From a virus (Duplodnaviria > Heunggongvirae > Uroviricota > Caudoviricetes), in IMG/VR virus record IMGVR_UViG_3300020577_007233, positions 32,001-96,000 of that record: a DNA stretch of 64,000 bases. One strand, written 5' to 3'. Position 1 is the first letter of the stretch. Each line of letters begins with the position of its first letter. The notes below the pieces were generated by a model that had not been told where the DNA came from, did no database searches, and was given only the letters and a program-made list of their open reading frames with translations. Shown one piece after another: positions 1 through 18,149 of this stretch. Position numbers and translations under genes: made by a program.

Positions 1-190
1 CTGGAGGTGCGTCTTTTGCCAATTGTTCTTTAACCTTCTGTGCCTTTTGCTCAAAGGCAACTTTTTCATCAGCCACTATAACTTCTGCATAAGAAGTTTC
101 TTGGCTGTCGTCTGCTTCTTCCTTGATGTTTGAACCATCTTTAGGAATAGCGAATATTGCATCTAGTTGGTCTTGAATTGGCAATGTCAT
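1..190 (-). CDS. hypothetical protein, N-terminal part (runs off the left edge)
   Basis: ATG at 190 shortly after the stop of 208..531; open frame MTLPIQDQLDAIFAIPKDG... to position 1; not in the ORF track because it is truncated. Confidence 0.6.
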   Translation of the reverse strand, partial: MTLPIQDQLDAIFAIPKDGSNIKEEADDSQETSYAEVIVADEKVAFEQKAQKVKEQLAKDAPP

Positions 191-207
191 TACTTCATCC
201 TTATATT

Positions 208-531
208 TCAACCCAACTTGTCAAAGTCTTGCTTTTCTTCAGCAGATAATCCACGACGAGATGGTTCAGCAGAATTCATCGTTGCTGCAAAACTTGTCAT
301 TTTGAGTTCCTCGAAGACCTTCTTCGCTGTTTCATCAAAATCTTGAGTAACAAGCGTAGTCAAATTATCGCTCTTCTTTCTAAGGGTATCAATAGAATCC
401 CACTCAATCTCATGCTGATGATCGACAGTGATATCCATTGTCTCATATTTTGCAGTATTGTACTTCCGCATGATAACTTTGCGGATTGTTGATTTTCTTG
501 TTTTCGCTACTTCATTTGCTTTATCTGACAT
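208..531 (-). CDS. hypothetical protein
   Basis: 107-aa ORF co-oriented with neighbours, GGAG upstream of ATG; no recognisable motif. Confidence 0.7.
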   Translation of the reverse strand: MSDKANEVAKTRKSTIRKVIMRKYNTAKYETMDITVDHQHEIEWDSIDTLRKKSDNLTTLVTQDFDETAKKVFEELKMTSFAATMNSAEPSRRGLSAEEKQDFDKLG

Positions 532-587
532 GATTATGCTCCATTTGTATCTTGAGATCGACTACTACATTTAATCTGTCTACTGAT

Positions 588-2564
588 TCACCCAAACATA
601 TCGCCGGCTTCAACGCCTTTTTTCCTAGCTCTCTTGAGGTCTTCTCGAATGATGGTAAACTCTTTCATGATATCATCCTTTGATTTACCTCTTCCCTGCT
701 TTGGCTTAAAGAAACCAGCAGCCAGTAAAGATTCTACAGCTTTCGTATCAACAACCTTCGTATCTGTCTTTTCTGCAAAGTCTTTCAAACTCGTATAAGG
801 CTGATTCTTTTCGATATTCTCAACAGCCGCATCACTAAGGCCTTTACACTTCAAAGAAGGCATAATTTGCGATTTAGGAACTCCATTGGACGGATCTGCC
901 TTAGATGCAATGTAATATCTAGCCTTACAATCGTTGATATGTCTCTGAAGAATCTCTACATTCATTTCCTTAGCCATCTTTTCCAACGATTCTACCTTTT
1001 CATACTTTGACCTACCGATTTCAACATTGAGATAAGCAGTAAGAAATTCTTCTGGATAATTGGCCTTCAGGTATGCTGTAATGTAAGAATTGTACGCATA
1101 GCAACAAGCGTGAGCCTTATTGAAGCCGTAATCCGCAAACGGCATGATGACTCTATCCCAATAGTCTTGGGCAACTTTACCATCTATACCGTTTTCTTGC
1201 GCGCCAGAAATGAATCTAGCTCGATACTTTGCAAGCAGTTCTGGCTTCTTCTTACCAATAGCTTTGATAACAACGTAACCTTCAGGGATCGAAAAGCCTG
1301 CAACAGCGTTGCATATCTGCATGACCTGTTCTTGATAAACAAGCAGTCCATACGTCTTCTTGAGATATGGCTCAATATGCTTCCTCAAAGAAGAATGGAA
1401 GTAATCTATTGGTTCGACACCGTGCTTACGATTGCAGTAAGTAGGAACTGACTCCATAGGGCCGGGACGGTACAAAGCTATACCTGCCATGATATCATCA
1501 AGAGAGTCAACTCCCATGTTTACCATTGTCTTTTGCATTCCATGCTCTTCGCACTGGAACACTCCGACAAGCTGACCGCTCTTATAGAGATCAAACGTCT
1601 TTCGATCATCTAGAGGCAAATCGTAAACGTCAATATCTATACCATAGTTCTCTTTTACAAGCCTGCAACAATGGTTGATAACAGAAAGGGTACTAAGAGC
1701 AAGAATATCGAACTTGATAAGACCAAGCAATTCAAGATCGTTGTACTCAAACTGAGTAGCAAATGTATACTTAGGCCCATCATTTTCTTCGCCGTCTTCG
1801 CTGACAATCTTGGTCTGGCGAAGCGGCGCTATGCTTGATAGAGGCTCATTCGAAATAACAATACCGGCAGCATGCACTCCGAAAGTAGAAAGTAATCCCT
1901 CGATATTGCGAGAGTGAGTGAGGATATCTGGGTATTTGTCAACGTAGTAACGAAAATTCTTGCACCACTTGTAAGCGTCCTCGACAGTTTTGATTGCATG
2001 TTCATTGCCATCCTGATCCTTAACCTTCAAAAAGGCTCCATATTGCTCAGGGAGTGAGTCAAGAATCTCATTTCCCAACTCATTTGTTTCAACTTTCCAC
2101 TGATCATGACCTTTGAAGAAAGTTCTTTCTGGATCAACAGCCTTGATGACCCTTCTAACGAAGCTCTTCATCTTGAGGCCAGAATACGTTCCTATGTTTC
2201 CAACGTGTTCTCTTCCGTATGTATCAATAATGTACTTATAGATTTCGTTTCGATGCTCATAATCGAAATCTGAATCAATATCGGGAAAGCCCTTACGGGC
2301 AAAAGCTCGACGCTTCTGCAAGAACGAAGAACCTTCGTCTGGCTTTTTGTCAGTCATTCCAAGAGCATAAGCGGTCCATGAGTTGATCTCATTTCTCTTG
2401 CCCTTTTTGCCAGCAGAGTTTTTCCATAGTCCATGAAACTTCTGAAGAATAGGCTTTTCATCAAGCCCTTCAGTTTTTTCCATCTTTTCAAGCTCTTCTT
2501 GAACAAGAGGAAGTAACGACTTATCTTGAATAGCTTCTAGAATTTCTTCTTTAATTGTTGACAT
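588..2564 (-). CDS. dnaE: DNA polymerase III alpha (DnaE), C-terminal fragment: palm aspartates, fingers, HhH, terminal clamp-binding-like motif
   Basis: RKGFPDIDSDF, GVHAAGIVI, LIKFDILAL, GVFQCE, ALYRPGPM, YQEQVMQI, YGFNKAHA, YLKANYPEEF; ends AGDMFG; no PHP domain and no OB fold. Confidence 0.95.
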   Translation of the reverse strand: MSTIKEEILEAIQDKSLLPLVQEELEKMEKTEGLDEKPILQKFHGLWKNSAGKKGKRNEINSWTAYALGMTDKKPDEGSSFLQKRRAFARKGFPDIDSDFDYEHRNEIYKYIIDTYGREHVGNIGTYSGLKMKSFVRRVIKAVDPERTFFKGHDQWKVETNELGNEILDSLPEQYGAFLKVKDQDGNEHAIKTVEDAYKWCKNFRYYVDKYPDILTHSRNIEGLLSTFGVHAAGIVISNEPLSSIAPLRQTKIVSEDGEENDGPKYTFATQFEYNDLELLGLIKFDILALSTLSVINHCCRLVKENYGIDIDVYDLPLDDRKTFDLYKSGQLVGVFQCEEHGMQKTMVNMGVDSLDDIMAGIALYRPGPMESVPTYCNRKHGVEPIDYFHSSLRKHIEPYLKKTYGLLVYQEQVMQICNAVAGFSIPEGYVVIKAIGKKKPELLAKYRARFISGAQENGIDGKVAQDYWDRVIMPFADYGFNKAHACCYAYNSYITAYLKANYPEEFLTAYLNVEIGRSKYEKVESLEKMAKEMNVEILQRHINDCKARYYIASKADPSNGVPKSQIMPSLKCKGLSDAAVENIEKNQPYTSLKDFAEKTDTKVVDTKAVESLLAAGFFKPKQGRGKSKDDIMKEFTIIREDLKRARKKGVEAGDMFG

Positions 2565-3201
2565 TTACATTCTCCGTTGTTATTCTGGGCAAAACAACGC
2601 CAGGGCCGTACACCCAATACCCAATTTGATTATTTTGATTAGAACATCTTTTTTGTTGATTACTATATTTTAGACTATAAGAACCTAGTTTGAAATTCTT
2701 TTCCGATATTTCTAAATCACAAGAATATTCTGTTCCAGAATTATGGTAAAGTTCATTATCTATGTTTTTAACAAGCTGAATGTTTTCATTACGATAATTT
2801 TGCATAAAACTTCTACATAAATTAGCCATTTCTTCCACAAAGAAAAGCCTTCTTAAGTCAAACGAATGCTGACCCAATTCATAATAGCTTATGAGTTCTA
2901 CTTTGAAATAGTCTAGAAAATACAATCCATCTTTCGAATTAACACTAGAAGGAAAACACGGAACTGCGCAGCAATATTTACCTTCATGAAGTTTGTCATC
3001 TAAAATCATTTCAAGAAATGACTGCTCGCCAGATGTTACAAACATGCTTGGATTGCATTCAAGAACATCCTTTTCAGTAAAAAGCTTAGGACAGGTAATC
3101 AACATCGCTTCCTTAGAAACACTCCAAGGAACATCTATGTATTTATATCCATGTTTTTCATAAAATGAAATTGCTTCGACAACTATTTTGTAGTCAATCA
3201 T
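2551..3201 (-). CDS. minimal class II aminoacyl-tRNA synthetase-like protein, probably catalytically degenerate paralog
   Basis: Aligns end to end with 3214..3801 (YKYIDVPW, SGEQSFL, GKYCCAVPCF, FKVELI, LGSY, WVYGPGVVLPR), but the motif-2 Arg is replaced by Pro. Confidence 0.7.
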   Translation of the reverse strand: MIDYKIVVEAISFYEKHGYKYIDVPWSVSKEAMLITCPKLFTEKDVLECNPSMFVTSGEQSFLEMILDDKLHEGKYCCAVPCFPSSVNSKDGLYFLDYFKVELISYYELGQHSFDLRRLFFVEEMANLCRSFMQNYRNENIQLVKNIDNELYHNSGTEYSCDLEISEKNFKLGSYSLKYSNQQKRCSNQNNQIGYWVYGPGVVLPRITTENVNVNN

Positions 3202-3213
3202 TTAGCCCGCCAT

Positions 3214-3801
3214 TTAGTGAAACAATCTCGGAAGAGCAACTCCTGTTCCGTACATCCATCTGCCGCAACTAGGATGAGATCTCAGTCCATAAGAACCCAA
3301 TTCGACACCTTTGCTAGTGACAACATCGTAGTTCACAAACGTATCGCACTCATGTCTTGGATCATCTTCTGTTTGAACAAAGTCAAGCTCATCAGTAATA
3401 ACGCTACCCATAAACGCCATAGCATCATGTATCATGTCGCCAAGACCAAACTCGCTAAAATCTTGAGCAAGCGTATTGATTAACTCAACCTTGAAGAATT
3501 GAGAAAAATGCAAGCCATCTTTCTTGAGTCCGTCAAACTTTCGATAACATGGAGTTGCGCAACAGTATTTGCCCGGAGGCAGTTCTTGATTAAGAATCAT
3601 CTGCAAAAACGATTGTTCACCAGAAGCAACCATTTCTTCTTCTCGAATCGAATTTGGTTCTATACAGGTTGGAAGAGTAACTAATAAGGCTCTTTTGGAA
3701 ACAACCCAAGGAACTTCAATGTACTTGTATTCCGCAATATCTTCGTAGTAACGAATAGCCATATTGACGGCATCATAATCAATCAAGGGAAATCTACTCA
3801 T
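3214..3801 (-). CDS. minimal class II aminoacyl-tRNA synthetase-like ligase (catalytic core only)
   Basis: Motif 1-like YKYIEVPWVV, motif 2-like TPCYR...DGLH..FFKVEL, ELGSYGLR, motif 3-like YGTGVALPRL; no anticodon-binding domain (195 aa). Confidence 0.75.
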   Translation of the reverse strand: MSRFPLIDYDAVNMAIRYYEDIAEYKYIEVPWVVSKRALLVTLPTCIEPNSIREEEMVASGEQSFLQMILNQELPPGKYCCATPCYRKFDGLKKDGLHFSQFFKVELINTLAQDFSEFGLGDMIHDAMAFMGSVITDELDFVQTEDDPRHECDTFVNYDVVTSKGVELGSYGLRSHPSCGRWMYGTGVALPRLFH

Positions 3802-4046
3802 TGTCTACTCCCGTCCATAAACGCAGATCTCGTTGCATTAGACATCTTAATAAGGTCTTCGATAGTGAAAGCAGGAAGTCTAAAACTCAAATAACCCTGT
3901 ATGGCTCCGACTAAATCAGAAAGCTCAACGAGAGCCATAATCTTATTGCCCTGTTCTTCTGCGTCCTGAAGCTCTTGAAGCTCTTCTACAATCTTAGATA
4001 TCTCGCCATACTTGCCCTTTGTGATATGTCTACGATGATAGCCCAT
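3798..4046 (-). CDS. small all-alpha NTP pyrophosphohydrolase (MazG/HisE-like)
   Basis: ExxE...ExxD motif (IVEELQEL...VELSDLVGAI); start moved to MGYH at 4046, which has GGAG upstream; ATGA overlap with the aaRS-like gene. Confidence 0.7.
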   Translation of the reverse strand: MGYHRRHITKGKYGEISKIVEELQELQDAEEQGNKIMALVELSDLVGAIQGYLSFRLPAFTIEDLIKMSNATRSAFMDGSRQ

Positions 4047-4047
4047 A

Positions 4048-4899
4048 TTATTCTCCAAAACACATTGATTCAACCCCGTGCCTTTCGGCATAGGAACTTT
4101 TCTTAACAATGAGCAATTCAATCTCTCTGTCTTTCTCTTCTTCTGTTTGCATGCTTTTTGCTACAGACTTTTTATAGTAAGCAAAACCTTCCTTTTCAGG
4201 ATAAAGCTGCCTAATAGCTTCGCTGTCGTAATACGAGATTGCACAACTGCCTTTGACTGATTTTACAACACCAGCCATCTCTTTATGATCAAATCCCTTT
4301 TTCTTGTTTACATGATAGAAGTTCTTTTCAACATTTTTGTAAGGAGGGTCAAGATAAAAAAGAGCTTCTGGACAATCCCATTTTCTCATACAATCTTCGT
4401 AGTCAAGATTCTCTATGTAAACATGGCGAAGAAAAGCTGCGCATTGTTCAATAAGAGGAGGCAATCTTGCCCAAGTTAGACAAATGTTCTCGCCAGTTCT
4501 AGAAACACACCATGAACCATCTTCCTTACCAAACATGCACTGTCTGTTATAGATGAGATAGTTTCTGGCCCATTCAACAGGGTTTTCTTTCAAGAAATCT
4601 TTATCGCCTTCAATATACTCGTTGGCAAGATCAAAGTCTCTTCTACTATAAGGGGTCGTAACAACTGCGCTTAAGAACTCGTCCCTATGATCTCTAATAA
4701 CTCTAAATAGATTCCATACATGACCATCCAGGTCGTTATAGATCATTCTGTATTTGTCGTCGGGTTTAGGCATGCCATACCCAACCGCAAAACTTCCGCC
4801 AAATGGCTCGCAGTATACGGTATGAGCAGGCAAGTGTTTGATTATCCATTTACGAATTTTCACTTTACCGCCTATTCTTTTTATGATAGTGTCTGCCAT
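4048..4899 (-). CDS. DNA adenine methyltransferase, Dam/D12-class
   Basis: RIGGK, YCEPFGGS, YNDLD, IENLDY, FYLDPPY; start moved to MADT at 4899 with GAGGGGAG upstream. Confidence 0.9.
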   Translation of the reverse strand: MADTIIKRIGGKVKIRKWIIKHLPAHTVYCEPFGGSFAVGYGMPKPDDKYRMIYNDLDGHVWNLFRVIRDHRDEFLSAVVTTPYSRRDFDLANEYIEGDKDFLKENPVEWARNYLIYNRQCMFGKEDGSWCVSRTGENICLTWARLPPLIEQCAAFLRHVYIENLDYEDCMRKWDCPEALFYLDPPYKNVEKNFYHVNKKKGFDHKEMAGVVKSVKGSCAISYYDSEAIRQLYPEKEGFAYYKKSVAKSMQTEEEKDREIELLIVKKSSYAERHGVESMCFGE

Positions 4900-5420
4900 T
4901 CTCTCCCCTCGCCAAGGATCTCCCAAGTGTTTTTTCTGTAATCCACAAGTCGATAAAACTTAGCATCGGAAATGGGAACTTTTCGAACATAATCCGGTCC
5001 TCTTCTTGTATTTTCAAGAACAGGATTCAGCGGGTCATAAGCTTCATACTTTATGATAGCGATTCCCTTAAGATCTTCGCTGCAAAGAGCAAAGGTTGTA
5101 AACCTATTTCTTGAGTTCGCTTCCTTACTCTTCCTGTTAAGTACATTAACTGTATCAAACGGGAAGTACCCATTACCAAACGCCCAGTTATGCTTTATCT
5201 CTGCGCTTATGATAAGGTGTTTGCCGCCTAAATCGCATTCAATATCCCTATGATAGGGTAAATCTCTTTCTGAACCTGCCTCTGCTATCAGATTCTTGGC
5301 TCCAAGTCTGTGAAGAAGACTAAATACAGCCATCTTAGCAAGAACATCGCACTCGAAGTCTTCCTCTCGGAAGCGAGAAGCCTCTTTTCCTTTGATGCTT
5401 TTGTCAACTTGAATCATCAT
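4881..5420 (-). CDS. PD-(D/E)xK-family nuclease-like protein
   Basis: RDIECD...SAEIKHNW (D...ExK signature); likely start MMIQ at 5420, 1 nt after the dnaE-N stop. Confidence 0.55.
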   Translation of the reverse strand: MMIQVDKSIKGKEASRFREEDFECDVLAKMAVFSLLHRLGAKNLIAEAGSERDLPYHRDIECDLGGKHLIISAEIKHNWAFGNGYFPFDTVNVLNRKSKEANSRNRFTTFALCSEDLKGIAIIKYEAYDPLNPVLENTRRGPDYVRKVPISDAKFYRLVDYRKNTWEILGEGREWQTLS

Positions 5421-5421
5421 T

Positions 5422-6831
5422 TCAATACCTATCAACTCCGCCAGCATCCTCAGTAACATCTCGGTCTTCAAACAACTCGGTATTAACAACCTCTTCAATA
5501 GCTGGAACTGCTACTTCTTCGCCAAAGAAATCTTGTTCTTGAACGAAATACTTATCATCAAAACCAAGGAATCGTTCCCAAATCAAGTCATACTTCAAAG
5601 GATCTGGTCCGTAAGAAATGCCTATAGCTCTAAGAAGAACGCTAGCATAACCAGAACCTCGACCACACCCTGTTAGGATGTTCTGATCCTTAGCTTTCTG
5701 TATGTAGTCTCTAACGATCAAGAAATAAGTCGCAAAGTCATACTTGTTATTTTCCCAAGCAACTCTTACGTCCTCAAGTTCTCGCTTAAGTCTTTCAACA
5801 TGCGGAGGGCTTCTATCCCATCCCAATTTCTTCATTCCCTCCCATGAAAGGTGAGAAAGATAGTCAAACGGAGAAGCAAACCCTTCCGGCATTTTGTACC
5901 TAGGCAAACGCATGCCTGAATTCATATTGGTCCAAATGTCCTTTGCGTCAACCTTGTCAGCAACAGTTACGGTATTCAGCAAGAACTCTGGATGAGAACC
6001 AAACATAACAGCCATCTCAGCGGCTGACTTCATGTAAAATTCATGGTAAGGGAAATGCAAGTGCTTTGGATCGTGCAAGCATCTACTTGTAGACATGCAC
6101 ATAAGAATTTCTTGCGAGAGTCCGTGTTCTTTCTTGCAGTAGTGACAGTCATTGGTAGCAATAATCGGAACGTTCATGTCCTTTCCGATTTTAATGATAT
6201 CTGGAATGATCATAGCTTCTGCATCAATGCCATGATACATAACTTCCAAATGGAAGTCTTCCTTGAAGATGTCCTTGAAGATGCCAACAGCTTTCCTTGC
6301 CTCTTCAACTCTACCATGAAGAATGTTTGCGTTGATTACGCTGCTCAAGCAAGCTGAGTTGCACATAAGACCTTCGCTATGCTTGGCAAGAAGCGGAAGG
6401 TCAATACGAGGGTCAATATACCATCCCTCTGTCCAAGACTGCTGAGAAAGGGCGCAAAGATTCTGCCACCCCTTCCAGTTTTTGGCTATCAACACAAGGT
6501 GTCTATTACCCTTGCGACCCTCTGTTTGGCCTTTGATAACTTTAGTACCTTCTCTTTTTTCAGTAAAGCGAAGGTTTCTGTCTTTGGATAAGTAGAATTC
6601 GCATCCAACAATAGGCTTGATGTCAAAGTTCTTTTCTTTGTCATTCCAGCAAGATTGAATGAACTTGACTGCTCCACCGATATTTCCGTGGTCAGTTAAG
6701 GCTAGGGCTTTGAATCCCATCTCTTTTGCAGATTTAGCAAATCCTGAAAGCTTATTCAGCCCGTCAAAAGACGAGTATTCCGAGTGGTTGTGAAGATGCA
6801 CAAAATCCGCATTGGTTATCGTTCTGCTCAT
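5422..6831 (-). CDS. dnaE: DNA polymerase III alpha (DnaE), N-terminal fragment: PHP domain and start of the palm
   Basis: FVHLHNHSEYS, ALTDHGN, KPIVGCEFY, ATNDCHY, YFLIVRDYI, GCGRGSG, DPLKYDLIWERFL, then a 46-aa acidic tail and stop. Confidence 0.95.
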   Translation of the reverse strand: MSRTITNADFVHLHNHSEYSSFDGLNKLSGFAKSAKEMGFKALALTDHGNIGGAVKFIQSCWNDKEKNFDIKPIVGCEFYLSKDRNLRFTEKREGTKVIKGQTEGRKGNRHLVLIAKNWKGWQNLCALSQQSWTEGWYIDPRIDLPLLAKHSEGLMCNSACLSSVINANILHGRVEEARKAVGIFKDIFKEDFHLEVMYHGIDAEAMIIPDIIKIGKDMNVPIIATNDCHYCKKEHGLSQEILMCMSTSRCLHDPKHLHFPYHEFYMKSAAEMAVMFGSHPEFLLNTVTVADKVDAKDIWTNMNSGMRLPRYKMPEGFASPFDYLSHLSWEGMKKLGWDRSPPHVERLKRELEDVRVAWENNKYDFATYFLIVRDYIQKAKDQNILTGCGRGSGYASVLLRAIGISYGPDPLKYDLIWERFLGFDDKYFVQEQDFFGEEVAVPAIEEVVNTELFEDRDVTEDAGGVDRY

Positions 6832-6837
6832 AGTACC

Positions 6838-6866
6838 AATTCGTCATTGTACCGAACAGCCTTTTG
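6838..6866 (-). promoter_or_regulatory. candidate promoter AAAGG-N16-CGAAT upstream of dnaE-N
   Basis: Minus strand AAAAGGctgttcggtacaatgaCGAATT in one of the few intergenic gaps; similar element at about 22305-22333. Confidence 0.3.
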
Positions 6867-6875
6867 CGAAACACT

Positions 6876-7223
6876 CTACGACAAATCCAGAGTGTCTCCC
6901 TTGTTGACTGTCTCTTTCTTCATAAAGATTTCAGATGGAGAAACCGTTGAGCTTATATAGTCAATATTCTCAATAGGAACTTTCTTAACAACCAAGCTGT
7001 GAGTTGAATTGATAACAGTCAGATCAAAGGTATCTTCGGATACAAGGTTTATCCTGACCCTTTCGTGAGATGTAGGCATAGAATGGGCATCTCGCCTGTA
7101 CGAGATAGAAATATCAGTTCTTGCCTTATGGAAGTTTTGAAGCAAAGTTCTAATGGCTTCTTTGTCTTCAACTTGCTCATCAGCAATAACCTGAATTGTC
7201 ATTTGCTTACGAACGTATCTCAT
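6876..7223 (-). CDS. hypothetical protein
   Basis: 115-aa ORF in the operon, 2 nt from the upstream stop. Confidence 0.65.
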   Translation of the reverse strand: MRYVRKQMTIQVIADEQVEDKEAIRTLLQNFHKARTDISISYRRDAHSMPTSHERVRINLVSEDTFDLTVINSTHSLVVKKVPIENIDYISSTVSPSEIFMKKETVNKGDTLDLS

Positions 7224-7225
7224 GG

Positions 7226-7504
7226 TTAGCCATGCTTTCTCGGATCGAATCTTTCTCGAATGCCTTTGGTTTTGTCGCTAACCCACTTTGGCTTAGTCTT
7301 GCGTATATGATCTCGAACATCAGAGCATCTTTCCCAAGCTGGTCTGCCATCTCTAACCGATGGGGCCGAAATAGCACGCCTAACAGCCTTGCCTGTTTCA
7401 GGGTGCTTTACTAGAGCTTCATCGCTCATTTTCTGCAAAATCTCAAAGCGTTCACCAGTTGGCTCGCCTTTGTCATCGAGGATTTCATACTCATAGAATG
7501 GCAT
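7226..7504 (-). CDS. FmdB-family regulatory-type protein (cysteine-less zinc-ribbon variant)
   Basis: MPFYEYE...GERFEILQKMSDEAL.KHPETG..VRRAISAP matches the FmdB pattern MPxYEY.C..CG..FE..Q.MSD..L..CP.CG...R.IS with the Cys residues replaced. Confidence 0.75.
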   Translation of the reverse strand: MPFYEYEILDDKGEPTGERFEILQKMSDEALVKHPETGKAVRRAISAPSVRDGRPAWERCSDVRDHIRKTKPKWVSDKTKGIRERFDPRKHG

Positions 7505-7722
7505 TATCTACTATAACCTTCACACTGAGCAACTATTGATGCTCCGCCTTTTTTCTTGTAAACCTTCCAGTTTACCTTTGAGCCAAATACGGTGACACTA
7601 ACTGGCTCTATTGGATTAGAGCAATCTTTTGTTTCGCAGTTATTACAAAGAGGAACAATTGGACCCATTGGGCCAATTGGCAGTCTATCAAGCGGGATTA
7701 GTTTGCACTTATAGTTGTTCAT
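7504..7722 (-). CDS. small Cys-rich hypothetical protein
   Basis: CNNCETKDC plus a distal Cys; TAATG and ATGA overlaps with neighbours. Confidence 0.6.
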   Translation of the reverse strand: MNNYKCKLIPLDRLPIGPMGPIVPLCNNCETKDCSNPIEPVSVTVFGSKVNWKVYKKKGGASIVAQCEGYSR

Positions 7723-8342
7723 TTCTTACGAATGACTTTTTCCTGCGGCTTGGCTTTTGAAAGAGCTTTCTGTCTTTCAGACAGGATTGACTGAGCCTCT
7801 TCTTCTGTAAGCTGCACTTGATTTGCTGTATTAGAAAGAGTTTGCATAGGAATAGCTCCTTCTATGCTATCTTGAATGCCTTGAATTCGCTCTTGTTCCT
7901 GTTTTAATAGGTCTTGCATATCTTCGGGAGCATCTTCAAAATCTTCGCCGCTATCTTCCTCAAGATCTACTTCTACAACATTTTTGATTTGCTTGTTGCC
8001 AACTTTCAGTGGATTCACTTTGGGTTTAGCAACAGCAATATTGGGTCTAGGAAGGGGAGTGCGAGAGACTGGTGCTGCTGTTGTTTTTGGAAGCCTTTGC
8101 GGAGCAGCAGGCGCTGGCAGAGAACGTCTTCCTTCAATGATTCCTTGTTCAACAAGAAAATCTGAAACTTCGGAGAACATTCCAGCAGGAAAACTGATTG
8201 CAGGTTCCCCTTCTTCGGAAAGGACCGTTATGGTTGGACCATACTCCTCGCTGCTATGAAAGCGAAGAGTAATAGAATACGGGTGATCGTTAGACTCAAA
8301 TTCGTATTCGAAGTCAATCTTTTTGTTCGACTTTATTGCCAT
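7719..8342 (-). CDS. hypothetical protein with Pro-rich and acidic low-complexity regions
   Basis: 207-aa ORF coupled to neighbours. Confidence 0.65.
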   Translation of the reverse strand: MAIKSNKKIDFEYEFESNDHPYSITLRFHSSEEYGPTITVLSEEGEPAISFPAGMFSEVSDFLVEQGIIEGRRSLPAPAAPQRLPKTTAAPVSRTPLPRPNIAVAKPKVNPLKVGNKQIKNVVEVDLEEDSGEDFEDAPEDMQDLLKQEQERIQGIQDSIEGAIPMQTLSNTANQVQLTEEEAQSILSERQKALSKAKPQEKVIRKK

Positions 8343-8538
8343 GTGTTTCCCCTAATATCTTTCTTCGCAAATACTCTCTTATGATGTTTTGCGCTACAAC
8401 GAGTTTTTCTTCATGTTCCCTGACAAACTTGGGCTTAGTTTCTGGAGGAATGTATTTTTCGCAACCATAACAAATGGTTCCATAAACATTGTCTCTTTCA
8501 GCATTCTGAGAACCGCAAAATGGACAAGAAAAACCCAT
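8314..8538 (-). CDS. small zinc-ribbon protein
   Basis: CPFC...CYGC; start moved to MGFSC at 8538, 1 nt after the upstream stop. Confidence 0.65.
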   Translation of the reverse strand: MGFSCPFCGSQNAERDNVYGTICYGCEKYIPPETKPKFVREHEEKLVVAQNIIREYLRRKILGETHGNKVEQKD

Positions 8539-8539
8539 A

Positions 8540-9007
8540 TCAACTGTTATCGTCATTATCGTCGCTAGTGGCTGAATCAAACTCTCTATCCAGTCTAGTT
8601 CCAAACTTCTTATCTAAATGATCAGAATCAACAATATAGGTTTCCCACTCTTTCTTCCAAAAGGGAAGCCAAGCATCAACAACCGAAGGCAAAGGCTCTG
8701 GCGTTTTCCAACCATATTCGTTTGCCCAGTAGGTCAGAAACCGTATATCTTGATTGTGAAGATCTCTAGTAGACGGGTAGTATTCAGCAATATATACTTT
8801 GCCAGTATTGTAGAAATGACAAATCATACCAACATAGCCAAATGGACTCATAATAGTGACTGTTGACCTAATCATCCAGTCTTTTTTCTTGCCTTCAGCG
8901 CCCGTTTTAGCTATATCAGAAGACATTATTTCACAAACTTTGTCGAAGCGACCATTCGCTTCAAGCATAGTTAAATCATTGAACTGAACATCAAACTCAA
9001 CTTCCAT
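8540..9007 (-). CDS. hypothetical protein
   Basis: ORF in the operon; likely start MEVEF at 9007, overlapping the MTase stop. Confidence 0.6.
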   Translation of the reverse strand: MEVEFDVQFNDLTMLEANGRFDKVCEIMSSDIAKTGAEGKKKDWMIRSTVTIMSPFGYVGMICHFYNTGKVYIAEYYPSTRDLHNQDIRFLTYWANEYGWKTPEPLPSVVDAWLPFWKKEWETYIVDSDHLDKKFGTRLDREFDSATSDDNDDNS

Positions 9008-16725: not shown

Positions 16726-17227
16726 TAGCAGATTCTCTCAAGGGTTTTAGCACAACGAAAACAACGTTGTCCATAACCTTCAAATCGTCCCATTTGGCAA
16801 TATCAGAGAAGTCTGCCACGCTTTGTTTAAGCAGGTCTTTGGCTGTGTTCATAAACGCCCTTTCCCTGCCTTTTAGTTGTATTCCGAACTTGACTATGCA
16901 CTTCTTTTCAAGCATGCCTCGGATCTTGTTCTTCTTCACTTTGATGTCGTTAGAACCAGTAGTTAGGTGAAACATCATTTCTTTTGTCTCTACAGGTTTA
17001 CTGGTCACTTTTTTTGAAGCTTCAAACTTCATCTTACCAACATCAGCAAACTTACAGATAGGAATACCATTGTTATGCTTAGCGACTTGAACAAGATCGA
17101 GACCCTTTTCTTTTGCCGTAGAAATGGCAAATCTCTTATTAGTCTCACCCTTGTTGACTCCATTTTCGTCAATAAGAATAACAACCGCTCCATAAATCTC
17201 TTCGTTCGCAAAAATTCTAGTGTTCAC
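16697..17227 (-). CDS. infC: translation initiation factor IF-3
   Basis: ANEEI...VILIDENG..KG...A.EKGLDLVQVA....PICKFAD.GK.KFE, KEMMF, KGRE; probable GTG start at 17227 after GAGGAG. Confidence 0.9.
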   Translation of the reverse strand: MNTRIFANEEIYGAVVILIDENGVNKGETNKRFAISTAKEKGLDLVQVAKHNNGIPICKFADVGKMKFEASKKVTSKPVETKEMMFHLTTGSNDIKVKKNKIRGMLEKKCIVKFGIQLKGRERAFMNTAKDLLKQSVADFSDIAKWDDLKVMDNVVFVVLKPLRESANAERNEPTN

Positions 17228-17237
17228 TTCATTCTCC

Positions 17238-18149
17238 TCAGATGCGCAGTTGAGCGCTCTCTGAAAAAATAACATCGGTTGCTTTAACCTTTAGAGAATC
17301 CAATACACTCGTAAGCTCTCTCTTACAATAATCAACCGGATAAGGCGAAAATCTCTTTGTAGAAGACACAATTCTATCTACACTTTGTTCGCCCTCTTTC
17401 ATGGTATCTTTTAGTATAGCCATGACAATATTCTTGGCCTCTGTTTCGTTCTTACCTTTCTTTGTCATAAGCCAATTGAAAGCTATGACAACTCCATATG
17501 TCATCATAAAACAAATACGACTTGCGGCAAAGGCGGTATCCATTCCATCAAAAGAAACCTCATCAGGAACTTCCTCTTGAATCAAAACAGCTTTCTTGTA
17601 TTGGCTAAGGAAGTTTTTGACAATTCGTTTTTGCAAAATAGCGTGAACATAAAAGTCGCCATCTTCCTTTTCCATTCTTGTAGACTCATGCGAAAAGAAC
17701 CAGTCAATATAGTCTTTAACCATTAGTGGATTCAGTGGTTTTTCTTTGAAGTCGTTAGCAAATCTATTCTTGAGCGACTTCATCATAGTTACGCCAGCCC
17801 TCAGCGTAAGATCATAAGCAGAGTTCTTGTATTTATTCTGAAAACACTTTTTGAAGTAATAGAAAAAATGAGTTGCATCCCAAACATCAACAGGATCGGT
17901 TAAGTATTCCGACATTCCAGATGCTCTGGTTTTTAGCCAGTTACGAGTGCCTTTCTTCTCGTATTTACTTTTAGTCTTCTTAGTTTTCGTTTCTTCGCCA
18001 TATACTTCCAGTTCGTTTTCTCCAAGTATGTCATACAAAGACGCTTGCGGTCTTTTGTCTTTAGGACCAATACCTCTCAATGCATCTTTCTGACTAGCAG
18101 AGATAACATCAAACATTTCATCAATCTTCATTTTGTTCTTTCTTGGCAT
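17238..18149 (-). CDS. hypothetical basic protein (possibly replication-related)
   Basis: Lys-rich ORF of about 303 aa; start moved to MPRK at 18149, 1 nt after the upstream stop; function guessed from context only. Confidence 0.6.
   Translation of the reverse strand: MPRKNKMKIDEMFDVISASQKDALRGIGPKDKRPQASLYDILGENELEVYGEETKTKKTKSKYEKKGTRNWLKTRASGMSEYLTDPVDVWDATHFFYYFKKCFQNKYKNSAYDLTLRAGVTMMKSLKNRFANDFKEKPLNPLMVKDYIDWFFSHESTRMEKEDGDFYVHAILQKRIVKNFLSQYKKAVLIQEEVPDEVSFDGMDTAFAASRICFMMTYGVVIAFNWLMTKKGKNETEAKNIVMAILKDTMKEGEQSVDRIVSSTKRFSPYPVDYCKRELTSVLDSLKVKATDVIFSESAQLRI

Follow-up and report, generated by a model that had tools for sequence, protein, structure and literature searches.

The closest described precedent for a divided C-family polymerase is the minimal DNA polymerase III (Pol III) alpha of group 2.2 jumbo phages, for which computational analysis assigned the nucleotide-binding part and the Mg- and DNA-binding part to two proteins encoded by separate, distant genes (Iyer, Anantharaman, Krishnan, Burroughs, Aravind 2021, PMC7824862). 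That enzyme has no PHP or other domains, lies beside a family B polymerase and was suggested to be auxiliary, and its two parts were proposed to reconstitute one enzyme (PMC7824862). Here, we analyzed a window of 64,000 nucleotides, comprising bases 32001-96000 of the 256,820-bp IMG/VR record IMGVR_UViG_3300020577_007233 (CheckV completeness 51%), in which the replicase gene dnaE is present as an N-gene and a C-gene; given the size and completeness of the record, the source is a huge phage. The cut is of the same kind as that already published for the Pol III alpha catalytic module of jumbo phages (PMC7824862), as it falls between the nucleotide-binding and metal-binding subdomains. Unlike the group 2.2 enzyme, however, the DnaE described here is full-size, retains an intact PHP domain, is the sole recognisable polymerase, has close unsplit relatives, and includes a second, overlapping copy of the palm N-subdomain (palm-N). 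A literature search found no description of a full-size, PHP-bearing DnaE split with such an overlapping duplicate.

Other divided enzymes resemble this locus in part. In cyanobacteria, dnaE lies in two distant genes whose products, DnaE-n and DnaE-c, are ligated by a split intein (as cited in PMC3919608). The phage halves differ in having no Hint domain, and their ends at the break are a hairpin and tail on one side and a palm-N copy on the other; cyanobacterial DnaE is also cut at a different site. Among family B polymerases (PolB), DNAP-N and DNAP-C of PhiKZ form a stable 1:1 complex, as resolved by cryo-EM (PMC13648687). The likeness to split PolB would lie in a phage replicative polymerase acting as a non-covalent two-chain complex, although PolB is of an unrelated family and fold. 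T4-related gp43 in two cistrons and Methanothermobacter PolB are reportedly further split family B polymerases, and we know of no duplicated overlap reported at the break of any of the split PolB enzymes. The NrdA of Aeromonas phage Aeh1 is said to be split in its catalytic core by a free-standing homing endonuclease and to work as separate chains. Here too, an essential phage enzyme is divided within its catalytic core, but in two relatives (L002 and L004, see below) the halves abut without an intervening gene, and the inserted genes are later additions. For both halves, the best match in sequence and structure is Mycobacterium tuberculosis DnaE1 (7pu7, 5lew), an active PHP proofreader that is one polypeptide with a single palm-N and, as in bacterial DnaEs, 7 residues between ERFL and PDxD. 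To our knowledge, the C-family polymerases studied biochemically always have their catalytic core in one chain.

Bacteria replicate their DNA with C-family polymerases; here, the halves of the nucleotidyl-transferase site of such an enzyme are found on two proteins, in phages of about 0.5 Mb. We consider it likely that the two genes encode two subunits of one C-family (DnaE-type) replicase, which would operate without splicing and with a composite active site. The features of the two genes on which this reading is based are as follows.

5422..6831, minus strand: dnaE N-gene, 469 aa (PHP domain, palm N-subdomain with GRGS and ERF, hairpin, acidic tail)
6232..6798, minus strand: PHP domain core, residues 12-200 (Pfam)
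5557..5862, minus strand: palm N-subdomain copy A, residues 324-425, with the GS motif and WERFLGF
5521..5565, minus strand: hairpin-like motif after ERFL, residues 423-437, with F424 and D434 invariant
5425..5520, minus strand: acidic tail, residues 438-469, ending in GGVDRY (5425..5442); stop codon at 5422..5424
588..2564, minus strand: dnaE C-gene, 658 aa (putative decayed palm-N copy, catalytic strand, thumb, rest of the palm, fingers, helix-hairpin-helix (HhH))
2289..2564, minus strand: head of the C-gene product, residues 1-92, putative copy A', a degenerate duplicate of the palm N-subdomain
2268..2285, minus strand: catalytic strand PDIDSD, residues 94-99, with D95 and D97
1707..1715, minus strand: KFD motif, with K284 and D286 (third catalytic Asp)
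1188..1691, minus strand: fingers domain, residues 292-459 (Pfam)
705..959, minus strand: HhH (HHH_6) domain, residues 536-620 (Pfam)

A sequence-only reading of the window had proposed a dnaE broken into these two open reading frames (ORFs), and both are present on the minus strand as it described. They are separated by 2857 bp, and each has its own stop or start. The five genes and approximately 2.85 kb that the same reading placed between them correspond to five minus-strand ORFs filling 2565..5421, so that seven genes, namely both halves and the five between, share one strand. The N-gene ends in a TGA at 5422-5424, with the ATG of the next gene one base further, and the C-gene carries its own GGAG Shine-Dalgarno sequence (SD) and ATG, its start overlapping the end of the preceding gene.

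The N chain has the anatomy of the first part of a bacterial DnaE. Its residues 3-423 align to residues 3-413 of M. tuberculosis DnaE1 (7pu7_A; E 4e-62), with the alignment ending at ERFL, and Pfam assigned PHP (PF02811, E 4.3e-40) to residues 12-200 and matched positions 2-97 of the 260-position DNA_pol3_alpha profile. Nine positions that we take to be PHP metal ligands from those of M. tuberculosis DnaE1 (H14, H16, D23, H48, E78, H111, C161, D228, and H230) were invariant in 56 N-halves, as were G390, R391, G392, and S393 of the GRGS motif (residues 390-393; 5653..5664, minus strand) and R420 of WERFLGF (residues 418-424). The 45 residues that follow WERFLGF are strongly acidic; counted from WERFL, the extension has 47 residues with 15 D/E and 3 K/R, in line with the PHP, GRGS, WERFLG, and acidic tail that had been noted for this gene from its letters.

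The C chain continues where the N chain stops. It matched positions 69-260 of the DNA_pol3_alpha profile, together with the fingers (PF17657, E 5e-52) and HHH_6 (PF14579, E 8e-10) profiles. All three catalytic Asp residues attributed to it by the sequence-only reading are in place (D95, D97, and D286), the last of which, judging also from the Pfam domain boundary, we take to be equivalent to E. coli D555. R85, R86, R90, P94, D95, D97, D99, K284, and D286 were invariant in 60 C-halves. The Pfam search of the C chain gave no match to the OB fold (PF01336), which is present in bacterial DnaE homologs, and the chain stops approximately 40 aa past HHH_6; the OB and tau-binding C-terminal region belongs to bacterial DnaE. 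Hence, a palm with the GS motif and all three catalytic Asp residues is complete only when the two chains are taken together, and the single-polypeptide catalytic core of a DnaE-type C-family polymerase is not found at this locus. With invariant residues on each chain, both halves are under selection for catalysis, and neither has a complete site.

The 92 residues that precede PDIDSDF in the C-gene product had been read as a basic docking extension. This does not hold: the head contains 15 acidic and 18 basic residues, which is not net basic, and the heads of relatives are similar. Instead, it is very probably a decayed duplicate of the palm N-subdomain. When a hidden Markov model (HMM) built from 53 bacterial DnaEs was compared with 100 heads from which the RRAFAR-PDID part had been removed, HMM positions 297-379 matched head residues 3-84 co-linearly, with a best independent E-value (i-E) of 1.1e-5; five of the 100 heads fell below an i-E of 0.01, and none of the shuffled or reversed controls fell below 0.18. 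The canonical 1179-aa DnaE of a 595-kb phage (LR756511.1) matched both halves with overlapping segments, residues 320-430 to N-half residues 313-423 (E 5e-8) and residues 329-440 to C-half residues 2-97, in an alignment extending to residue 134 (E 2e-10); the head alone (1-84) matched it in the identical register (E 0.017). In tblastn searches of the C-half against many canonical phage DnaEs, alignments reached into head residues 2-55. BLASTP of the tail region against the head found no similarity, and hhalign of the whole N against the whole C profiles yielded only a spurious hit. In copy A', G55-K-R-N58 is aligned at the GRGS position and the GS motif is lost, whereas N58, P75, R85, and R90 are invariant among relatives.

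Structure comparison points the same way. Predicted alone from a 68-sequence alignment, the head formed four helices with a predicted local distance difference test (pLDDT) value of 74.5, and the top five matches of this model among 48,161 representative PDB chains were all C-family polymerases: 5lew_A (Z 6.5, 86 residues, root-mean-square deviation (rmsd) 3.9 Å), 5fku_A (Z 5.5), 9qpc_A (Z 5.3), 5m1s_A (Z 5.3), and 7pu7_A (Z 5.0). The matches begin at residues 289-318, the start of the palm, and cover 82-86 residues at rmsd 3.9-6.6 Å. The Z values for this predicted fold are modest, yet its specificity for the C family is striking.

The split DnaE is the replicase and the only recognisable polymerase of the phage. 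No family A or B polymerase was matched in the 257-kb record of the window or in four IMG/VR relatives, and the only DNA_pol3_alpha matches in these five were the two dnaE pieces. One of the relatives, with 498,568 bp and terminal repeats, is rated 100% complete, and another 98%. With both halves conserved, each having its own stop or start, and no other polymerase in complete relatives, the earlier proposal of an unspliced two-chain polymerase is supported.

We examined how widely the arrangement is distributed. The best 120 protein clusters matching the N-half showed 52-98% identity and lengths of 429-502 aa, except for one with an intein, and the best 120 matching the C-half showed 49-98% identity and were mostly 616-683 aa long, nearly all with the same head. 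These clusters were drawn from ENA, JGI, NCBI, Logan, and Tara assemblies, with contigs of up to 505 kb, and PHROGs holds half-length families matching each half. The split is thus conserved, old, and widespread, occurring in more than 100 groups of uncultured huge-phage relatives, and half-length genes annotated as "DNA polymerase III alpha" in huge-phage bins are neither fragments nor errors. Megablast of the locus against 50,697 phage records gave no match; the protein matches in those records were all unsplit and below 40% identity, and no cultured phage with the split was found among them. Unsplit relatives occur at 44-58% identity. A search for related phages with the same break or a fused form, which had been suggested as a check, returned both, the former as the half-length clusters and the latter as two unsplit types, A and B.

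The unsplit forms define where the gene is cut. We measured the junction from ERFL to PDxD, counting both motifs. It is 16 residues long in bacteria and in one phage protein, 25-27 in unsplit type A, 61-66 in two intermediates, and 126-136 in unsplit type B. The type B insert contains, in one chain, the hairpin, a variable linker, and the entire C-half head, and it is within this linker that the gene is divided in the split forms. Accordingly, the break lies within a lineage-specific insert of approximately 110-130 aa, which is present also in some unsplit relatives, and not in the canonical loop. The claim that dnaE is broken in the ERFL-to-PDxD stretch stands insofar as the cut, in terms of the canonical fold, still parts the GS motif from the catalytic strand; it fails in placing the cut in the bare loop. 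These close unsplit relatives, of two kinds and with intermediates, allow comparison with the split forms.

Independent trees for the N part (76 rows) and for the C part (67 rows), both rooted on bacterial DnaE, gave concordant results. A basal unsplit clade contained the canonical-length form and the two intermediates (support 100), and there were purely split clades, including that of the window (96 in the C tree). One clade of 35 rows had split forms interleaved with types A and B (95 in the C tree); in each tree, the type B protein P0157 had a split form as its sister (97 and 99). This interleaving suggests that the one-chain and two-chain forms are interchangeable, and fission or re-fusion probably occurred more than once.

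In the two-chain enzyme that we propose, the N chain would contribute proofreading through its PHP domain, together with the half of the Pol-beta-like palm that binds the nucleotide (GS motif and ERF). The C chain would bring the metal-binding strand (D95 and D97), K284/D286, the thumb and fingers, and, for DNA binding, the HhH domain. The first Arg and the GS motif would thus be contributed by the N chain, and the second Arg and the three Asp residues by the C chain. Copy A always retains the GS motif, whereas copy A' has lost it; hence, copy A would be the one that completes the active site beside D95/D97, with A' sitting elsewhere. An extra interface holding the chains together is probably made by the helical decayed copy and by the hairpin after ERFL, which occurs in every split form and in the unsplit relatives of type B.

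As for its origin, the first step may have been that a single-chain enzyme underwent partial tandem duplication of its palm N-subdomain, giving the state seen in type B. The first copy would then have kept the GS motif, while the second lost it and kept the canonical link to the catalytic strand, and the gene would finally have broken in the poorly conserved linker between the copies. After the split, the inter-gene junction became a site of cargo-gene accumulation, with five genes here. We infer this scheme of duplication, complementary decay, and fission as the simplest one. An overlapping, complementarily decayed duplicate is a candidate intermediate by which an active site could survive fission of its gene, and the locus could show protein engineers a naturally occurring, intein-free position at which to split DnaE-type polymerases.

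We also modelled the two chains together, a check that the sequence-only reading had proposed. The prediction for N (1-469) and C (1-500) scored 0.86, against 0.00 for the best of three controls, a pass that is expected for the halves of a protein solved as a single chain and thus indicates likeness rather than binding. Of 80 solved complexes, 58 attained the mark of 0.86, as did 2 of 110 mismatched pairs; these counts apply only roughly because we supplied alignments of our own. The runs agreed in at least 86% of contacts, with a partner pLDDT of at least 82. On the N chain, the confidently predicted interface includes the GRGS loop (385-396), the stretch from ERFLGF through the hairpin (419-437), helices of copy A (353-383), and PHP residues; on the C chain, it includes the head (28-90) and the catalytic strand (93-101). 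The acidic tail (438-469) and head residues 1-27 were not confidently placed, which argues neither for nor against contact between them.

Beyond this limit on the complex score, several points weigh against our reading. The support for a two-chain enzyme consists of sequence comparison and predicted structures, and the choice of the palm-N copy that would occupy the active site follows from conservation. For the head, hhalign against the N-half profile gave the expected register at a non-significant E of 0.37, a search of the head profile against PDB sequences found no DnaE, and Foldseek returned Pol III alpha as four of the top five hits, but at E 2.6-8.7. The trees were made by a quick method, and when the grouping of all split forms into a single clade was put to the approximately unbiased (AU) test, p was a borderline 0.040, for a group named after the tree had been seen. 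In addition, the acidic tail ending in GGVDRY is not accounted for by the two-chain model.

The best-surviving alternative is that the C chain alone is the polymerase, using its own palm-N copy, and that the N chain is a PHP exonuclease or accessory protein whose palm piece serves only for docking. The C chain does have a full palm topology, in which the copy is joined to the catalytic strand by the canonical short link, and N58 is invariant at the position of the GS serine. We predicted C-half residues 1-298 alone. The head was well defined (pLDDT 87-96) and co-linear with the palm-N of E. coli and M. tuberculosis alpha from residues 289 and 317, respectively, but it lay 13-14 Å rmsd off the canonical place, the remainder superposed at 4-5 Å, and the connector and catalytic strand (87-98) fell below pLDDT 50 and appeared disordered. 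This predicted arrangement is consistent with copy A' lying outside the canonical position. Moreover, the head lacks the GS motif, whereas GRGS and ERF are invariant in all 56 N-halves, the opposite of what a C chain acting alone would predict. We therefore regard this alternative as decidedly improbable.

Much less plausible still is that the tail and the head together make up a cryptic or atypical split intein, which would join the halves post-translationally. Inteins are common in this gene family, many halves have LAGLIDADG/Hint inserts at other sites, and an N61-S62 pair is conserved in the head. However, the Pfam search matched no Hint or intein family on either half, tail and head included, in agreement with the earlier remark that intein hallmarks are missing at the break. 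The head is predicted to be alpha-helical and is homologous to palm-N, whereas an intein is all-beta, and by this homology S62 falls in the helix after the GS loop. The tail and the head up to N61 amount to only approximately 105 aa, a subclade of N-halves with short tails has 14 residues past ERFL, and the type B unsplit relatives keep the insert as ordinary sequence.

Inteins (LAGLIDADG_3, Hint, and Intein_splicing) are frequent inside both halves of relatives and never at the split. They were found in P0023 and P0127-P0160 (N-halves of approximately 600 and 830-1270 aa) and in P0273 and P0285 (C-halves), as well as in neighbouring AAA ATPase and methyltransferase genes of relatives (L006:68-3064; L008:5937-7850). 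The intein-bearing N-halves examined keep the half-type C-terminus, most with the GGVDRY end.

Joining at the RNA level by an intron or trans-splicing, or recoding where the halves are adjacent, is barely credible. The seven genes lie on one strand, and a promoter and terminator scan showed no convincing terminator or other signal between the halves. However, an Rfam search of window positions 1..9000 gave no match and no intron, and the gap consists of five conserved protein genes here and of 0 to 5 in relatives. Every N-gene closes with a conserved peptide followed by a stop codon, the C-gene is equipped with a separate SD and ATG, and the junction geometry is varied (14-nt gap, 8-nt overlap, or kilobases). 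That the locus is a pseudogene or an assembly artefact, which only its unusual arrangement would suggest, can be set aside, as the same split appears in independent assemblies from several sources, the catalytic residues are invariant down to approximately 50% identity, and it is the sole polymerase in complete genomes.

As an extension of the two-subunit replicase, we put forward, tentatively and as rather unlikely, an assembly-gated enzyme, in which the decayed copy and the tail would be functional and not mere remnants: the spare copy would keep the C chain inactive and its catalytic strand disordered until the chain with PHP and GS docks, GGVDRY would tie in a replisome partner, and the one- and two-chain forms would have flipped repeatedly. 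If true, the lineage would offer a natural series for the division of an active site by duplication, complementary decay, and fission.

The tail of the N chain has a distribution of its own. Most split N-halves have the conserved acidic stretch with GGVDRY as the extreme C-terminus. GGVDRY is absent from unsplit relatives and from the short-tail subclade, which ends 14-18 residues after ERFL and retains the hairpin only, and the unsplit type B proteins have no comparable acidic tail. Docking by charge cannot be a general mechanism, since the acidic tail is missing from an entire subclade; with a head that is not net basic and a type B without the tail, the earlier suggestion that acidic and basic appendages dock the chains is not supported. 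Synonymous codon positions at GGVDRY and the downstream sequences vary among relatives, which indicates that GGVDRY is selected as a peptide and rules out a nucleotide-level signal, such as an SD for the next gene. No GGVDRY-like C-termini were found on other proteins of the 257-kb record. We also considered the hairpin and tail as decayed catalytic-strand copies, on the grounds of a shared GF-x-D and R-to-Y spacing; as this was a comparison by eye alone, we do not claim it.

The genes between the halves vary among relatives as follows.

L002 (N-half identity 66%): nothing between the halves, 14-nt gap
L004 (N-half identity 60%): nothing between the halves, 8-nt overlap
L006 (N-half identity 81%): two genes between the halves
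L007 (N-half identity 78%): five genes between the halves
L008 (N-half identity 70%): five genes between the halves
Window: five genes between the halves, namely
4881..5420 (probable extent), minus strand: P0007, the first gene after the N-half
4048..4926, minus strand: Dam-type D12 methyltransferase
3798..4121 (as an ORF), minus strand: small phrog_6408 protein
3214..3801 and 2551..3201, minus strand: two paralogous phrog_4806 proteins

Because the halves are adjacent in L002 and L004, the five genes are later cargo and not the cause of the split. Nor is the split a singular event, as nearly all of the best 120 clusters for each half are half-length. The series shows that the inter-gene junction accumulated genes stepwise after the split. 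By homology comparison, a small protein gene and one phrog_4806 gene adjoin the C-half in L006; the methyltransferase is additionally present in L007, L008, and the window, which have differing genes at the 3' end of the N-half. Relatives hold a single phrog_4806 copy, and the window has a tandem duplicate. P0007, which adjoins the Dam-type methyltransferase gene, had no Pfam or PHROG match and no homolog at the same site in L006-L008. None of the five inserted genes matched an endonuclease family, and P0007 matched no family at all.

In the cassette of phrog_6408 and two phrog_4806 genes (2551-4121), phrog_4806 carries the PHROGs label histidyl-tRNA-synthetase-like and had no Pfam match. L007 contains a 54-nt relic (L007:12897-12950), flanked by an inserted 241-aa gene and the methyltransferase gene, in which the final 18 residues of a window-type N-half tail are preserved with 100% amino acid identity; the N-half of L007 itself is only 78% identical. 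In L012, the methyltransferase directly follows the N-half stop. The relic looks like a recombination footprint at the 3' end of the N-gene, where cargo was inserted repeatedly.

The neighbourhood is conserved upstream (DnaB, a DnaG zinc-ribbon protein, and methyltransferases) and downstream (three small genes, RecA, a Toprim protein, and SpoVS). The primase, too, is apparently encoded by two genes, one for the DnaG zinc-ribbon protein beside DnaB and one for the Toprim protein beside RecA. In L002, these lie approximately 13 kb apart, on either side of the polymerase genes (3966-4583 and 17047-17802), and L004, L006, L007, and L008 are laid out in the same way. In addition, a phage gene resembling that of translation initiation factor IF3 (IF3_N and IF3_C) lies in the replication neighbourhood of L004 (5632-6126), L006 (1-96), and L007 (1618-2154).

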